From positions 1-50,581 of the forward strand of contig JAUPVQ010000005.1 of assembly GCA_030916965.1 (NCBI GenBank): a DNA stretch of 50,581 bases, written 5' to 3'. Below, in pieces: positions 3,764 to 49,844 of this stretch (position 1 is its first letter; each line of letters opens with the position of its first letter). The DNA comes from Patescibacteria group bacterium (GTDB lineage Bacteria; Patescibacteriota; Minisyncoccia; Phycocordibacterales; UBA9973). Position numbers and translations under genes: made by a program. Under the pieces are notes generated by a model. That model saw only the letters and a list, made by a program, of their open reading frames with translations, was not told the DNA's origin and did no database searches.

Positions 3764-4606
3764 TTATTTTAAATTGAAAACTCTTTTCGCATTTACTACG
3801 AGCTGATTGGCAACTTCGTCGATTGGCAAACCTTTGATTTCAGCGATTTTTTTGACGACTTCTATTACATATACTGGCTCATTTCTCTTGCCACGATATG
3901 GTATAGGGGTTATGTATGGCGAATCAGTTTCCGACATAATCATATCAAGCGGTGTTTGGCGGACAACTTCATCATAATCATGAGTAAATGTAATCACTCC
4001 TGTAAAAGATAATGTGAAGCCGAAATCTACAAACCCTTTCGCATCTTCGAGACTTCCTGCAAAGAAATGCACATCCCCTAAAACCCTCGCATGCTCTTTC
4101 AAAATTTCCAACGCGTCGCTGTATGCATTGAGAGTTTTATCTTCAGGGTTATTGCGAATATGTAGCATCAATGGCTTGTTATATTCATTTGCGAGATTTA
4201 TCTGCTCTATGAAAGCTTGCTTCTGCTTAGCAATTGTTTCCTCTGTACAACGATAGTAATCTAGCCCGCATTCCCCTATTGCTACAACCTTTGGATCGAC
4301 AATTAATTTTTTGTAATTTTCGTAATCAAAAACTTCGCCACGGCTTGTAAAAGCCTTGCCTTCCTCCCCAAGTTCTTTCGTATCGTGATACGATGCGCCA
4401 GTATGTATCGGATGCAATCCAATAATCGCATATACACCATCATATTTATTTGCCATCTCCACTGCAAATCGTGATGTATCTATCTGCGTGCCGACATTGA
4501 TCACAGCAACGCCTGCATCGAGCGCACGCATAATAACAGCATCTCGATCCTCCTCGAATGCCTTGAAATTTGTATGTGAATGTATATCTATGTATTTGAA
4601 ATTCAT
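3764..4606 (-). CDS. tatD: TatD family hydrolase/DNase
   Basis: IDIHSH, GLHP, AIGECGLDY, ETDSPY and RGKRNEP motifs. Confidence 0.96.
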   Translation of the reverse strand: MNFKYIDIHSHTNFKAFEEDRDAVIMRALDAGVAVINVGTQIDTSRFAVEMANKYDGVYAIIGLHPIHTGASYHDTKELGEEGKAFTSRGEVFDYENYKKLIVDPKVVAIGECGLDYYRCTEETIAKQKQAFIEQINLANEYNKPLMLHIRNNPEDKTLNAYSDALEILKEHARVLGDVHFFAGSLEDAKGFVDFGFTLSFTGVITFTHDYDEVVRQTPLDMIMSETDSPYITPIPYRGKRNEPVYVIEVVKKIAEIKGLPIDEVANQLVVNAKRVFNLK

Positions 4607-4620
4607 AAATTTTTTGACTT

Positions 4621-4713
4621 CCTCCCCTCCTTACCAAGGAGGGAAATGAGGGGGGTTCCCCGAATTAATTAAGAACCTCTCCCCTGACCCCTCTCCTTGT
4701 TAAGGAGAGGGGG
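4621..4713. repeat. tail-to-tail pair of hairpin+tail palindromic repeats (BoxC/REP-like)
   Basis: CCCTCCTT-acc-AAGGAGGG (4625-4643) plus purine tail; AACCTCTCCCCTGA tail plus CCCCTCTCCTT-gtt-AAGGAGAGGGG (4688-4712). Confidence 0.85.
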
Positions 4714-5059
4714 AATCCAATTCCCTCATAATTTTATCTACCACTCCATCTATATTAGCATTTACTTCATTATTCCAAAAACGCAAAACCCTGATACCTA
4801 GATTGTTTAAAAATTTAGTTCTTTCTTTGTCATACTCTTTATTTTCAATATGTTGTGAGCCATCAATTTCAATCGCTAACTTTTTTATTGAACAATAAAA
4901 ATCCAAAACATACGGTCCAACAGAATATTGCCTTTTAAATTTATACCCCGTCTGTCCCCTCCTTAATCTTGCCCACAAAATAATTTCTTGGAGAGTTTGA
5001 TTCCTCCTTAAAAATAAACGTTTGCCTAAATTCTTAGATTTGTTGTACAAAATTGTCAT
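4700..5059 (-). CDS. DUF559 / Vsr-like PD-(D/E)xK endonuclease domain protein
   Basis: LRRNQT..E..LW..LR, KFKRQYSVGPYVLDFYC, LAIEIDGSQH, D.ERT.FL...GIRVLRFWN.EV. Confidence 0.92.
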   Translation of the reverse strand: MTILYNKSKNLGKRLFLRRNQTLQEIILWARLRRGQTGYKFKRQYSVGPYVLDFYCSIKKLAIEIDGSQHIENKEYDKERTKFLNNLGIRVLRFWNNEVNANIDGVVDKIMRELDSPSP

Positions 5060-5068
5060 ATTAGCATT

Positions 5069-5114
5069 TCCTCCTCTCCTTAATAAGGAGAGGACTGAGG
5101 AGAGGTTCTTAATT
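5069..5114. repeat. single hairpin+tail repeat, inverted relative to the copy at 4667-4712
   Basis: TCCTCTCCTT-aat-AAGGAGAGGA followed by CTGAGGAGAGGTTCTTAATT. Confidence 0.85.
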
Positions 5115-5125
5115 TAAAATCCATA

Positions 5126-5596
5126 TTAATCCGTGACAACAAAATCAACCCATTTATACGGCGAAGCTTTTGGGTCTATCTCCTTTAATTTTTTACTGGT
5201 TATATAACACACCTTGTCCATCCCATATTTATCACCTGAATGGACATCTCCGTCTATGTCACGAATAACTTCAAAAGTAATATATGGAAGAGTAACATCT
5301 TTTCCATCAAGTTTTTCACAAATGATTCTATTGTTATAATTTCTATAAATAATGAAAGCAGGCATACTTAAAAGTAAAACAAGGCAAACTATATAATAAA
5401 TTTTCTTAGAATTTTGCCGACGTGTAATAAAAATTATAAATGTAAATACCAAAAAAGATACAAGTATTACCCCTCCTACTCCTAAACGAGACGGTATGGG
5501 TACCACCTCCCACAGCAGAAAAGACATGACTGTTGGGAGAATTGCAATAAAGGCACTATACAGAAAATCTTTTATGATTGGAATTATATTTTGCAT
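5126..5596 (-). CDS. hypothetical membrane protein (3 TM)
   Basis: three hydrophobic segments; in the metG transcription unit. Confidence 0.7.
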   Translation of the reverse strand: MQNIIPIIKDFLYSAFIAILPTVMSFLLWEVVPIPSRLGVGGVILVSFLVFTFIIFITRRQNSKKIYYIVCLVLLLSMPAFIIYRNYNNRIICEKLDGKDVTLPYITFEVIRDIDGDVHSGDKYGMDKVCYITSKKLKEIDPKASPYKWVDFVVTD

Positions 5597-5598
5597 AT

Positions 5599-7149
5599 TT
5601 AATCTTTTCTTAAAAACAAAGGTTCTGTTGGTTTTTTGTTTTCTTTTATCAGATTTAAAATCTTTTCTGATGTTTCTGGAATAATAGGAAGTAGCATTTC
5701 AGCAATACCATGGAGACGCACGACAAGATCCTTAATTAAACTTTTACCTTTTTCTAAATCAACTTTAACAACTTTAAAAGGTTCTGTAGATTGAATAATT
5801 TTATCTACATTTTGAATTTCATTCCAAATAAAATCTGTTGCATGTTTTATTTCAAATTTTTCAAGATAATCAAAGCAAGCTTTTTGCATAGAATTTGTAA
5901 AAGTCTCAGGGCATCCATCCAAATATTTTTCTGAAAGTGTTAGGATACGCGAAGTTAAATTACCTAATCCATTTGCTAGTCCAGAATTATATGCATCTTT
6001 GAATCGCTCTATTGTGAACGGTGAATCTTCAAAATTGCTTACTTCTCGGAGGAGGAAATAGCGAAGTGCATCTGTACCATACTCAGCCACTATATCGCTC
6101 GGGTCTACTACGTTCCCTAGTGTTTTACTCATTTTAAGGCCTCCATCTGCTGTTATAAAGCCATTTACCACGATTTGATGGGAGTTCGGTACATCGGCTG
6201 CCATAAGCATGGCTTGCCACATAGCACTCTGGAAGCGTGTATTGTCCTTACCACAGTATTGCGTCGGATTGCCATTGACCCAGTATTTCTCAAAGAGAGA
6301 TTGCATTTCCCCTCCTCCTTTATAAGGGGGAGGCTGGGTGGGGGTTCCTAAATTAAGAACCTCTCCCCGGCCCTCTCCTTGGTAAGGAGAGGGGGCACCC
6401 TCTGGCCAGCCTAAGGTAGAAATATAATTTGTAAGCGCATCAAACCATACATACATAACTTGCTCCTCATCGCCGGGCACAGGTATCCCCCACGGCATTT
6501 TGGATTTGAGTCGTGAGATCGAGAAGTCTTGCAAGCCATTCTCGACAAAAGAAATAATTTCATTAAAACGAAATTCTGGAATTACAAAGGTAGGATTATT
6601 TTTGTAGAATTCCAAAAGCTTATCTTGGAATGCAGAATACTTAAAGAAGTAATTTTCTTCTTTGATAATTTGCAAATCAATACCTGGATGATCCGGGCAC
6701 TGCCCTTGCTCGTTGAGTTCGCTGTCCGTCTTTTCACTTTCACACCCTACACAATATTTTGCTTCGTAGGTTTTCTTGTAAATATATCCATTGTCGTATA
6801 CACGTTTCCAGAATTCTTGGGCAGCTTGCTCGTGATTACTATCTGTAGTACGAATAAAGTGTATATCATCGCTTACACCAAACATCTTGATTTGATTTTT
6901 AAATGTAGCAAAACCAGCATCTACAAACTCTTGTGCTGTTAATCCATTTGCATTTGCCTTCTCGTAAATTTTTGTGCCATGCTCATCGGTCCCAGTATTG
7001 AAATAAACATCAAAGCCAACGAGCTTTTTGTACCGAGCGATTACGTCGGCACGTACGAACTCCAATGCATGCCCCATATGAAGTGGCGCATTTACATATG
7101 GTAATGTTGTAGTTAGATAAAAAGGTTTTCCAGTATTTTCATTATTCAT
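5599..7149 (-). CDS. metG: methionine--tRNA ligase (short form) with an in-frame repeat insertion
   Basis: YLTTTLPYVNAPLHMGH, GTDEHG, YVWFDAL and KMSKTLGN motifs. Confidence 0.97.
   Translation of the reverse strand: MNNENTGKPFYLTTTLPYVNAPLHMGHALEFVRADVIARYKKLVGFDVYFNTGTDEHGTKIYEKANANGLTAQEFVDAGFATFKNQIKMFGVSDDIHFIRTTDSNHEQAAQEFWKRVYDNGYIYKKTYEAKYCVGCESEKTDSELNEQGQCPDHPGIDLQIIKEENYFFKYSAFQDKLLEFYKNNPTFVIPEFRFNEIISFVENGLQDFSISRLKSKMPWGIPVPGDEEQVMYVWFDALTNYISTLGWPEGAPSPYQGEGRGEVLNLGTPTQPPPYKGGGEMQSLFEKYWVNGNPTQYCGKDNTRFQSAMWQAMLMAADVPNSHQIVVNGFITADGGLKMSKTLGNVVDPSDIVAEYGTDALRYFLLREVSNFEDSPFTIERFKDAYNSGLANGLGNLTSRILTLSEKYLDGCPETFTNSMQKACFDYLEKFEIKHATDFIWNEIQNVDKIIQSTEPFKVVKVDLEKGKSLIKDLVVRLHGIAEMLLPIIPETSEKILNLIKENKKPTEPLFLRKD
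6304..6399. repeat. tail-to-tail repeat pair inserted in frame in metG
   Basis: hairpins 6311-6333 and 6371-6393 with the shared AATTAAGAACCTCTCC tail; encodes GAPSPYQGEGRGEVLNLGTPTQPPPYKGGGEM. Confidence 0.85.
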
Positions 7150-27394: not shown

Positions 27395-27423
27395 TTGACT
27401 TAAAAATACTTCCATACTAGTAT
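27395..27423 (+). promoter_or_regulatory. sigma70 promoter overlapped by the operator
   Basis: TTGACT-17bp-TAGTAT, 6 nt before the leader ATG at 27430. Confidence 0.7.
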
Positions 27424-27442
27424 ACTAGTATGGAAGTATTTT
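27403..27442. promoter_or_regulatory. TrpR-type operator (40-bp perfect palindrome)
   Basis: AAAATACTTCCATACTAGTATACTAGTATGGAAGTATTTT; core ACTAGTatACTAGT matches the E. coli trp operator core ACTAGTTAACTAGT; ACT/AGT repeat every 8 bp. Confidence 0.88.
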
Positions 27443-27513
27443 ATATTAGAACTAAATACACAAAGAACACTACCAACCAAATCTGGTGGAACTCATTTAC
27501 GCATATGCGTTGA
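27430..27513 (+). CDS. trpL: tryptophan attenuator leader peptide MEVFYIRTKYTKNTTNQIWWNSFTHMR
   Basis: 27-aa uORF with tandem TGG TGG at 27484-27489, directly before attenuator segment 1. Confidence 0.85.
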   Translation: MEVFYIRTKYTKNTTNQIWWNSFTHMR

Positions 27514-28334: not shown

Positions 28335-28370
28335 AAATCCCCCGCAAACTAAACTTTCGGGGGATTTTTT
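28335..28370 (+). terminator. intrinsic terminator
   Basis: AAATCCCCCG...CGGGGGATTT plus T-tract. Confidence 0.8.
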
Positions 28371-28396
28371 ATACTTCTATACTAGTAGGCAAGTAT
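28371..28396. promoter_or_regulatory. second, weaker TrpR-type operator upstream of trpR
   Basis: ATACTTCTATACTAGTAGGCAAGTAT, an imperfect version of the 27403 palindrome that is one 8-bp unit shorter. Confidence 0.72.
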
Positions 28397-28430
28397 TTTA
28401 ATAATTTAATTTTTGGGGTATAATACTACT

Positions 28431-47990: not shown

Positions 47991-49844
47991 TTATTTACAA
48001 ATAGTACTTGTTAATGGAACTTTTGTTTCTTTCATGCCGCCAACATTATCTAAGCACCACATTGTTGTTGGGTCGCTAGCAAGTGGAACAGATATTGCAT
48101 ATCCTTTTGATGTAGAGTAGCAACTTGCTATATTGTCCGTTGCATTAAGTACCAGTGCCATTGGCTCTGAATTATCAAATAGTGAACCTTTTGTAGGACT
48201 GGTGCAACTTCCGTTTGAGTTTGCCTTACCGTATGAATTTTTATTTTGGTCATAAAACAATTCTGCATGCGCACGCATATTTGCAAGATTGGCTTTGATT
48301 GCAGCGTCCTTGCCTCTTATTTTTGCCTTATTTACTTCTTCCATCATCGAGCGGGATACCTCTGGAACATCTATTGTGACATTCTCATTGATTTTTGAAA
48401 TTACAGAATTGATAGTGACCTTACCTTTTACTTTCATTGAATCCTTGATAATTATATCTTTTGTAGAAAGAACAAAGGTGAATTTCTTTGGGGTATATGT
48501 CCCCTTCACTACCCATACATCAGCTTTGATTTCATCAATAGAATCCATTTGGGAAAGAATTTCAGTCTTTTGTGAGTTGAGCTCAGGTTCGTCTGATATA
48601 TCAATCATTTTTGAAATAAAATTCTTTAATACCTCTTTGCTAACAAGAATCTGATAGTGACGGGTTGATTCGTTGTCGATTGTCTCTACTCCAACTTCAG
48701 TAATACTTTCTATAAACTTAGTCTCCTCTACAAGAGCTTTAATTTGTTTAATTTTTGCCTCATTATAAGGCACAGGAGATTCTTCCTTTGATAATTCCTT
48801 TATATCACTTTCATTAAATGCAAGCCAAGAATTTGGCTCCCCAGCGAATTCACTAATCATTCCTATGTCTGGAATTTTCATATAAAATGTTTTGTTAATC
48901 ATTCTGAATTCACTATCCAAATTGAGGCTGAAACCACCCAATATAGACATGTTCGCATTAGCGATAGCGCTCAGATTTATTGAGTCGGGGTTTGTAAGAT
49001 CAACATCCATGTCAGTCTTGATTTTAACCTTGTTTGTCATAGCCACTTTTTTGTCAGGACTGGAATCAGTATCTAGGATATTACTTGGATAAAGCTCAGT
49101 ATTATCCTTCATTGTATCCAATTCTTCAACAGTTATAGAAAGCTCTAGGTCCGTAGCTTGGTGAAGAGTTTTCATATCAGATAAATTACTCATCATTTTC
49201 GCCATTGCAACTTCTGGTGTCGGCTTGAAGAATGGGATTTCAAAAGGTAAATTTATATAACCTTTTATGCTTGCAAATATTGCTCCTCCTCCACCTAAAA
49301 TAAGTAGAATAAAAATTGTAATGAAAATAGATCGTACTATGTGGCTCTTTGGCTCCCCACTTATTGTTTCTAGGTTCTGATAATCCTTCCTATAAGAAGC
49401 TGTTACTGCTCCTTGTGGCAACGGACCTGGGGACATAATATTTGCAGTAACCATAGGCTGCACTTTTTGCTCTGGGCGAAAAGCATCAAAAGAGTTCATG
49501 CGTGGGTCCTGAGGTTGAGGTTGGGATTGAGGTTGAGGTTGGGATTGAGGTTGAGGTTGGGATTGAGGTTGAGGTTGTTTTGAATTTAGAACAGGTGAAG
49601 CTTCAATCTTCTTTATTGGGAGTGCACCAGCTGGGCCAACAACTTTTGGCATCAAGTTTGGTTTGAGTGGCTCTGGAGGGGTGAAAGTTGGTGTTGGAGA
49701 AGAAGTTGGGAAAAATTTCTCCAACCCTTCATTAATATCTTCTGTCTTCCACCCAGCATTTGATAATTTTAAAGAGATGTCTTCGCGCGATACTCCCTTT
49801 AATTTTTGAGCATCTATGTATTTTATTAGATCTTCATTTATCAT
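47991..49844 (-). CDS. membrane-anchored surface protein: Pro/Gln linker, TM, beta-rich domain, pilin-like C-terminus
   Basis: KAKIRGKDAAIKANLANMRAHAELFYD resembles the pilin helix; four C-terminal Cys. Confidence 0.65.
   Translation of the reverse strand: MINEDLIKYIDAQKLKGVSREDISLKLSNAGWKTEDINEGLEKFFPTSSPTPTFTPPEPLKPNLMPKVVGPAGALPIKKIEASPVLNSKQPQPQSQPQPQSQPQPQSQPQPQDPRMNSFDAFRPEQKVQPMVTANIMSPGPLPQGAVTASYRKDYQNLETISGEPKSHIVRSIFITIFILLILGGGGAIFASIKGYINLPFEIPFFKPTPEVAMAKMMSNLSDMKTLHQATDLELSITVEELDTMKDNTELYPSNILDTDSSPDKKVAMTNKVKIKTDMDVDLTNPDSINLSAIANANMSILGGFSLNLDSEFRMINKTFYMKIPDIGMISEFAGEPNSWLAFNESDIKELSKEESPVPYNEAKIKQIKALVEETKFIESITEVGVETIDNESTRHYQILVSKEVLKNFISKMIDISDEPELNSQKTEILSQMDSIDEIKADVWVVKGTYTPKKFTFVLSTKDIIIKDSMKVKGKVTINSVISKINENVTIDVPEVSRSMMEEVNKAKIRGKDAAIKANLANMRAHAELFYDQNKNSYGKANSNGSCTSPTKGSLFDNSEPMALVLNATDNIASCYSTSKGYAISVPLASDPTTMWCLDNVGGMKETKVPLTSTICK
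49510..49577. repeat. 18-bp tandem repeat x ~3.8
   Basis: TGAGGTTGAGGTTGGGAT units encoding QPQPQS. Confidence 0.9.

Follow-up and report, generated by a model that had tools for sequence, protein, structure and literature searches.

A predicted selfish cassette of a DUF559 nuclease gene and triplex-type hairpin repeats in a small Patescibacteria-type genome

The stretch of DNA analyzed here (50,581 nucleotides, hereafter the window) corresponds to contig C22 of G000, a genome of 730,340 bases (42 contigs, 95.7% complete, 37% G+C) that is of the small Candidate Phyla Radiation (CPR)/Patescibacteria type by its size and gene content. Positions 4667-5114 are read here as a selfish cassette, in which a gene of the DUF559 family would stand between two inverted units of ~50 nt and encode a Vsr-like nuclease that spreads both the cassette and gene-less pairs of the same repeat, a reading to which we give a probability of about 0.58. 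The mobility of the cassette appears well supported by comparison between genomes, and we infer a role of the nuclease in that mobility. The reading draws on the clustering of the units, an empty site, a recurrent build, the co-occurrence of gene and repeats, cassettes within leucyl-tRNA synthetase (LeuRS), the conservation of the gene-less pairs, a conserved nuclease core, and the lack of any TnpB, rve, or DDE_Tnp_1 match in G000.

In the mechanism proposed, the 5' unit would supply the ribosome-binding site of the nuclease gene and the 3' unit its stop codon, and the gene-less head-to-head pairs at 4619-4715 and 6303-6397 would be non-autonomous kin of the cassette ends, comparable to REPINs (doublets of repetitive extragenic palindromic, REP, sequences) beside a RAYT (REP-associated tyrosine transposase) gene or to MITEs (miniature inverted-repeat transposable elements) beside an insertion sequence (IS). 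The DUF559 protein may nick or cut the unit, folded or duplex, or the DNA close to it, and repair or strand transfer may then copy the cassette or a gene-less pair to new sites. Copies in tolerant surface loops of essential proteins, such as a loop of methionyl-tRNA synthetase (MetRS), would survive; the units consist of runs of C/T and of A/G, in which stop codons can seldom arise, and therefore can be read through.

Build of the repeat units and of the cassette

The original prediction placed five related units within 1.8 kb and none elsewhere in the window, which motif scans against shuffled sequence uphold. The window contains the 16-mer AATTAAGAACCTCTCC exactly three times, at 4667(+), 5114..5099(-), and 6351(+); when as many as three mismatches are tolerated, 0.65 matches are expected, and three were attained in 1 of 100 shuffles. 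The hairpin pattern CTCTCCTT-NNN-AAGGAGAG (at most two mismatches) occurs at 4625, 4691, 5074, and 6373 against an expectation of 0.00 (100 shuffles), and further scans added a fifth, diverged hairpin at 6311-6333. The whole 730-kb genome holds only seven units, five of them within 1.8 kb (4619-6397) around its sole DUF559 gene and two outside the window (C13:18291-18324 and C9:4411-4442). The solo unit on C13 sits in a divergent intergenic region (C13:18249-18370) and is flanked by two copies of the 17-mer ATATATAGTATAATATT; these copies may represent either a promoter-like sequence that was duplicated or a long target duplication.

The anatomy of the unit was derived by aligning the G000 copies with 24 from G013, the nearest repeat-rich relative, and with 19 pairs from six species. 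A unit of ~50 nt begins with AAGAACC (often preceded by AATT) and continues with a 9-nt pyrimidine tail, a 3-nt spacer, a hairpin, and GGAAATGC; the hairpin has 10-11 bp, its 5' arm being pyrimidine, its 3' arm purine, and its loop 3 nt long and variable. The pyrimidine arm of the stem is mirrored by the tail, with agreements of 9/9 (A2), 8/8 (B), 8/8 (C2), 7/8 (C1), and 8/9 (C13) in five of the seven units, and stem, partner arm, and tail covary between copies across the 19 aligned pairs. The unit thus has the three-block build of an intrastrand-triplex motif (a tail plus a complementary hairpin), and because the tail mirrors the stem, each strand may fold in this way. AATT is found often, but inconsistently, at unit borders.

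The earlier description of the repeats as tail-plus-hairpin units stands as far as the repeats themselves are concerned and required correction at 4619-4715 and 6303-6397, each of which is a head-to-head pair of the ~50-nt unit, joined at the AAGAACC ends around an AATT-rich center. Folded as single-stranded DNA, the pairs form three hairpins (z = -2.8 to -3.3 vs shuffles). The left half of pair A, unit A1 (4619..4666, minus strand), is diverged, with a hairpin that folds at 4623-4645 and GGGGGGTTCC at 4650-4659, and it can be aligned to the left halves of pairs in five further genomes; the gene-less pair C (6303..6397) comprises unit C1 (-) at 6311-6344 and unit C2 (+) at 6351-6393. Gene-less pairs of six species are alignable over ~100 bp, with unrelated flanks, and their mutual similarity exceeds that of the host genes.

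The cassette agrees with the ~450-bp DUF559 unit with inverted ends at 4667 and 5114 that had been proposed, in that the arms 4667-4715 and 5068-5114 are inverted, 84-85% complementary, and enclose the DUF559 open reading frame (ORF) as a unit of 448 bp. Its 3'-side repeat, unit A2 (4667..4715, plus strand), has AATTAAGAACC at 4667-4677, the tail CCTCTCCCC at 4676-4684, and a hairpin at 4688-4712, and its 5'-side repeat, unit B (5064..5114, minus strand), shows in minus-strand order AATTAAGAACC, the tail, a hairpin (5072-5094), and GGAAATGC. A covariance model built from 13 units and run on the 93 genomes of the genus (R1) scores them at 48.2 bits (A2) and 49.1 bits (B). The claim that the repeat gives the ORF its last codons and stop and an AGGAGG before its ATG is likewise borne out: the C-terminal codons D-S-P-S-P and the TAA stop (4700-4702) fall in the hairpin of unit A2, and the AGGAGG comes from the purine arm of the unit B hairpin, 10 nt before the ATG (5059). 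In relatives, the 5' unit also gives the DUF559 start codon. The triplex hairpins were rejected as intrinsic terminators, none having a T-run after it on the DUF559 sense strand, and promoter-like sites in the region show no excess (11 vs 8.0 +/- 3.1 in shuffles); one promoter-like site (5139->5111, minus), recognized by consensus match alone, extends over the outer end of unit B.

The gene between the two units (4700..5059, minus strand) encodes a predicted Vsr-like PD-(D/E)xK nuclease of 119 aa, which matches the DUF559 profile PF04480 with 123.3 bits (cut-off 20.6; E 4.9e-36) and is the only such match in the whole genome. In the match to the structural-genomics entry PDB 3HRL (E 9.2e-24), the D..ExD..H core is conserved, with vlDFyc and aiEiDGsqH of the query aligned with ivDFmC and ivEaDGgqH, and we read the core residues as catalytic. 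The match to the homing endonuclease I-Bth0305I (PDB 3R3P) is weak (E 0.06). With the core kept in the 3HRL alignment, the protein is plausibly an active Vsr-like nuclease. DUF559 is described as a family of Vsr-like fold (PMC3424549), and a table of predicted programmed-inversion targets lists "DUF559 domain-containing protein" as enriched among them (odds ratio 14.3), an entry that stands there uncommented (PMC9881135).

Insertion sites between and within genes

The gene order along the minus strand is permease, metG, a gene for a 156-aa membrane protein, DUF559, and tatD. The insertion site is marked on one side by tatD (3764..4606, minus strand; PF01026 E 1.5e-71, and synteny) and on the other by the predicted membrane protein (5126..5596, minus strand), an ORF for which profile searches gave no family match and of which G010 has one too. 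Between the start codon of tatD (4606) and the stop of the membrane-protein gene (5126), the block 4607..5125 contains pair A, the DUF559 gene, and unit B. Relatives show tatD directly after metG in 18 of 29 loci, and the empty site between tatD and its upstream gene that the original prediction proposed to look for was seen in G010 (L010), where metG, the membrane-protein gene, and tatD follow one another with ~9 bp between the last two, against 519 bp (4607-5125) in G000; the tatD ortholog of G010 is 94% identical over 102 aa. By this comparison, the block 4607-5125 is an insertion. In G019, a decayed DUF559 remnant with three stop codons lies between metG and tatD. Within that remnant (L016:3039-3075), there is also a perfect 17-bp palindrome (CTGCTACAAACTCAGCC/GGCTGAGTTTGTAGCAG), a hairpin element of another kind.

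Contigs of three independent studies (X5, X6, and X7) carry the cassette with 0 differences. Two joints, X5 4597->5598 and X7 5108->6351, have short sides (24 letters in X5) and fit a relative with tatD beside metG and a repeat-to-repeat join, and they were therefore rejected as signs of excision in this strain. The X6 contig has 0 differences over 1515 bases (window 4464-5978, spanning the cassette and the membrane-protein gene), and neighboring X6 contigs at similar depth are 0.7-4% different, a pattern that may reflect either that strains recently exchanged this segment or that the assembly mixes several strains.

Rather than between genes, the copy at 6303-6397 lies in frame inside metG (5599..7149, minus strand; PF09334 E 1e-93; TIGR00398 393 bits, over cut-off), which the original prediction missed. 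Pair C accounts there for 31 extra residues (EGAPSPYQGEGRGEVLNLGTPTQPPPYKGGGEMQ) between GWP and FEKYW, and it looks to be read through as additional residues of a MetRS loop. Among 27 relatives spanning the site, 24 are without such an insert, most having a 5-residue link; G013 carries an orthologous insert of 28 extra residues in which both hairpins are retained, and G005 shows a shorter, dissimilar run of 11 additional residues. Against PDB 2CSX, the closest MetRS of solved structure, query residues 247-286 fall opposite four residues that lie between two aligned blocks, which makes the insert site a short link.

This placement is a repeated one in G013, where 10 of 15 further elements lie within long open frames that run for at least 40 residues to both sides; from the flanking peptides, we read the hosts as KsgA-, UvrB-, alanyl-tRNA synthetase-, and arginyl-tRNA synthetase-like genes. 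Given these in-frame elements, the family behaves like the Rickettsia palindromic elements (RPEs), which are ~100 bp long, lie in frame in conserved genes, and are read through as surface loops. We know of no enzyme for RPEs. The likeness consists in a palindromic repeat in frame in conserved genes (metG of G000 and G013), whereas sequence and phylum differ and a gene-bearing form exists here.

A cassette in a coding region was found in two relatives. In G068 and G052, LeuRS contains in frame, where its editing domain starts, a DUF559 domain together with the flanking units, which are translated as NPSPALPKGKGE... and ...VLPFGEDLGGV. In LeuRS of G068, the Pfam matches are DUF559 and the LeuRS editing domain only, with no intein (Hint) domain. 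Among 31 genomes in which the site was compared, 18 have the standard 23-residue spacing (empty) and 4 are near that; the cassette is present in 2, a 206-residue insert in 1 (G094, L090), and a different in-frame insert of ~24 residues (SGPRMREDEEPDHSEN type; consensus like FSSGPRMREDEEPDHSENL) in 5 (L086, L100, L103, L105, and L111, from G011, G054, G071, G092, and G063, respectively). The LeuRS loop thus has the appearance of a hot spot where several kinds of insert survive. The LeuRS gene of G000 was considered as a third occupied site and rejected, contig C42 beginning 22 nt before the site and reading like the empty form; the N-terminal part of that gene is absent from the assembly, cut by the contig end. 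Downstream of the cassette in the same LeuRS ORF of G052 (C9, L063), a peptide read by eye resembles a NUDIX hydrolase motif (GLITGGVEEDEDIVEGALREIYEETGY).

Association of DUF559 genes and repeats across the genus

A PF04480 match is present in 26 of the 93 genomes of the genus. Twenty fetched loci with domain E-values of 6e-22 or better were taken as strong DUF559 loci, and perfect pyrimidine/purine hairpins (stem of at least 7 bp) were sought near the gene, that is, within 130 nt of the domain ends. Such hairpins stand at the gene ends in 16/20 strong loci, on both sides in 7/20, and in 0/9 loci with weak hits; their density is 4.26 per kb near DUF559 vs 0.21 per kb across the remainder of the same loci. 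At some of the four strong loci without a perfect hairpin, looser ones are visible by eye. By sequence, at least six types of hairpin and tail can be told apart, which track DUF559 protein subgroups and are common within a subgroup across different genomic contexts, and orders with the tail outside and with the tail inside are both found. The link between gene and repeat is shown in this way to recur in the genus, with different hairpin types.

Repeat load points in the same direction. Genomes with strong DUF559 (n = 17) have at least one R1 hit in 16 cases and at least five in 12 (mean 16; 272 hits in total, each cassette contributing two or more by itself), vs 18 and 3, respectively, of the genomes without it (n = 76; mean 0.7). 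Fisher's test on 16/17 vs 18/76 gives p = 7.7e-8, and with the five model-donor genomes removed, the comparison is 11/12 vs 18/76 (p = 1e-5). The genome-wide count and enrichment check suggested with the original prediction therefore came out in its favor, the load tracking DUF559 over the 93 genomes, and a distribution of repeats independent of DUF559 genes together with a lack of empty alleles is not what was observed.

Several findings weigh against spread of the cassette by its nuclease. The 93 genomes are kin and not independent, R1 was built partly from cassette flanks, and its counts include weaker reverse-strand matches on palindromic hairpins. A few repeats occur in 18 genomes without strong DUF559, and G062 has a DUF559 gene and no R1 repeat hit. 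No convincing target-site duplication was found at the 19 aligned pairs or at the G000/G010 cassette junctions, no recent transposition event was seen in the genomes and contigs compared, and the contigs of the three independent studies include none of the same strain without the cassette. The commonest gene-less form is joined at its outer (AAGAACC) ends and is therefore not what simple gene loss from the cassette would produce. The LeuRS loop also accepts inserts unrelated to the cassette, so that shared sites may reflect a tolerant loop at least as much as targeting. Repeats also go together with Y1_Tnp genes: in the genomes without strong DUF559, they are present in 18/59 with Y1_Tnp vs 0/17 without (p = 0.008), and the Spearman correlation of repeats with Y1_Tnp is 0.41.

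These last figures suit an alternative in which the units are REP/REPIN-like and are moved by Y1 (HUH) transposase-like proteins, DUF559 being a passenger or a landing neighbor. Y1 transposases are known to move hairpin repeats, REP and IS200/IS605 among them, and candidates are at hand: Y1_Tnp is found in 75/93 genomes of the genus, often in multiple copies, and three times in G000, outside the window, as ORFs of ~230 aa (C40:5701-5925, C21:20472-20687, and C9:12375-12596) that match the C-terminal two thirds of the Pfam model only. Repeats are present in 33/75 Y1-positive vs 1/18 Y1-negative genomes (p = 0.002). The correlation of repeats with DUF559 is, however, 0.66, and among Y1-positive genomes, repeats occur in 15/16 with strong DUF559 vs 18/59 without. 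No Y1 gene lies near any unit in G000, where the closest pair is ~8 kb apart (contig C9), and none adjoins a unit in G068, G069, G013, G054, and G048 among the best 150 matches of each list; G052 combines 12 repeat hits and a DUF559 gene with no Y1 match. Moreover, RAYT genes have their own REPs on either side, a position that here belongs to the DUF559 genes. We regard a Y1-driven origin as unlikely. TnpB, rve, and DDE_Tnp_1 gave no match in profile searches of G000.

A second alternative dispenses with mobilization in trans: the units would be expression or boundary signals of DUF559 genes, and the solo units and pairs would be remnants of gene loss or products of recombination between cassettes. 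That the main gene-less form is outer-end joined speaks against it, gene deletion giving another order, as do its fixed 52-nt period and the occurrence of tandem runs; so do the 272 hits in the 17 strong-DUF559 genomes, which have one to three such genes each, and the closer likeness of pairs than of host genes in six species. This alternative would account for a 5' unit that carries AAGGAGG plus ATG and a 3' unit that carries the stop, for a gene-less pair in LeuRS of G068 that is ordered as the cassette minus its gene, and for the G019 cassette in decay, and we consider it less probable still than movement by Y1 proteins.

Least probable among the alternatives, in our judgment, is that DUF559 serves the host as a structure-specific nuclease, kin to Vsr, which processes triplex or cruciform DNA and limits instability, its adjacency to the repeats reflecting co-selection. 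The homology of DUF559 to Vsr-type repair nucleases would fit such a role, as would the intact DUF559 domain in LeuRS of two species that differ at about a third of residues (by eye) and, in E. coli, the tie between TMECO triplex-repeat sites and local genome instability given in Holder et al. 2015 (PMC4666352). A host function sits poorly, however, with the patchy distribution of DUF559 (26/93 genomes), with an insertion that has no counterpart in close kin, with the entry of DUF559 into coding regions in the company of repeats that match it, and with the 58/76 genomes without strong DUF559 that have no repeats to control.

Relation to known systems and further observations

The likeness to BoxC and RAYT/REP pairs drawn in the original prediction was apt, and the mirroring of the stem by the tail, which it missed, is an intrastrand-triplex motif. 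According to Holder et al. 2015, BoxC/PIT/TMECO repeats have a three-block intrastrand triplex motif and frequent inverted pairs, and TMECO has 23 copies in E. coli K-12, which are described there as always intergenic and with no mobility gene reported nearby (PMC4666352). The units studied here share with BoxC/PIT/TMECO the tail that mirrors a stem arm, a G/C-rich pyrimidine/purine hairpin of ~10 bp, short variable loops, and inverted pairs; unlike TMECO, they frame a DUF559 gene and also sit in frame inside genes.

In E. coli K-12, ycjD (DUF559) ends inside a degenerate pyrimidine/purine hairpin, and a BoxC unit lies ~170-200 bp downstream of it (L081:5207-5240). The score that this BoxC unit obtains with R1, which contains only units of the genus, is 24.9 bits (E 1.5e-4 in 10 kb), at one locus only and with descent and convergence both possible. 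The chance that one of 23 TMECO copies falls within ~250 bp of a given gene in 4.6 Mb is roughly 0.3%, a post hoc figure for one locus. The text of Holder et al., at least, makes no mention of a link between ycjD and BoxC, and the word "endonuclease" is absent from it (PMC4666352). At least 80% of the fabI-ycjD-sapF stretch (L081:4900-5950) is present in 3346 of 5426 complete E. coli genomes, and in the remaining ones, the match breaks just after fabI, ~40 bp before the BoxC unit. The one such genome inspected, an O157:H7 record, was rejected as an empty ycjD site, a TetR/RND island following fabI with no clean empty site.

The REP/REPIN-RAYT systems offer a parallel in lifestyle, with a gene of one or few copies flanked by inverted hairpin repeats, dispersed inverted doublets, and a load that tracks the gene. 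The enzyme is different in kind, a Vsr-like PD-(D/E)xK protein and not a Y1 HUH one, and it is the DUF559 gene that is flanked here while Y1_Tnp is unflanked; unlike REP/REPIN, the units have a triplex tail and many copies lie in frame inside genes and not extragenically. With MITE/IS elements, the cassette shares terminal inverted repeats (4667-4715 / 5068-5114), but it differs from an IS in encoding DUF559 only, with no known transposase. It resembles homing endonuclease elements in having a small nuclease gene as selfish cargo and in its presence or absence at a fixed site, and in-frame homing elements in that, in relatives, DUF559 lies inside a host ORF without intein or intron features. 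The Vsr-like homing endonuclease I-Bth0305I is said to sit in a group I intron. What separates the cassette from homing elements is the hairpin repeats at both ends, the gene-less copies, and a nuclease that is either in frame or, as in the window, free-standing. In phage methylases, the ShiLan insertion is described as hiding an out-of-frame HNH nuclease (PMC11855218).

More tentatively than for the cassette itself, and with somewhat less than even confidence, we propose that DUF559 proteins may be the missing enzyme of the BoxC/PIT/TMECO triplex repeats, unexplained since the 1990s, in a widespread partnership that would parallel RAYT/REPIN with a Vsr-like PD-(D/E)xK nuclease, and that essential genes (aminoacyl-tRNA synthetases) may harbor both the cassette and gene-less pairs in frame, as inserts that would never be spliced out. 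No published link of DUF559 to triplex-hairpin repeats, and no account of this cassette, was found in the literature, of which supplements may hold more; the table of programmed-inversion targets comes closest to a hint. The parts are known (the DUF559 fold, BoxC/TMECO, RAYT/REPIN, RPEs, and in-frame homing elements), and their joining appears new.

If the proposal is true, DUF559, a large family without an assigned function, would gain one, and the BoxC/triplex repeats, studied biophysically without an associated gene having been found, would gain a mover. A second, unrelated enzyme class would then be added to the lifestyle of a single-copy gene plus dispersed hairpin doublets, so far that of RAYT/REPIN. 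The in-frame copies also show that very small CPR-type genomes put up with repeat insertions in essential synthetases and that relatives do so with an entire nuclease domain, which matters for gene annotation and for interpreting "extra loops" in CPR-type proteins. The position of E. coli K-12 ycjD beside a BoxC unit makes the idea testable in a standard laboratory strain.

Other repeats were noted in the same genome. The window holds at least three exact tandem copies of the 18-nt unit TGAGGTTGAGGTTGGGAT at 49510-49577 and, at 27401-27443 and 28366-28408, ~950 bp apart, related palindromic repeats built on ATACTAGTATACTAGTAT. On contig C31 (9390 bp), the first and last 60 bases are G+C-rich and mutual reverse complements, which may mark a linear element with terminal inverted repeats or result from a fold-back in the assembly.

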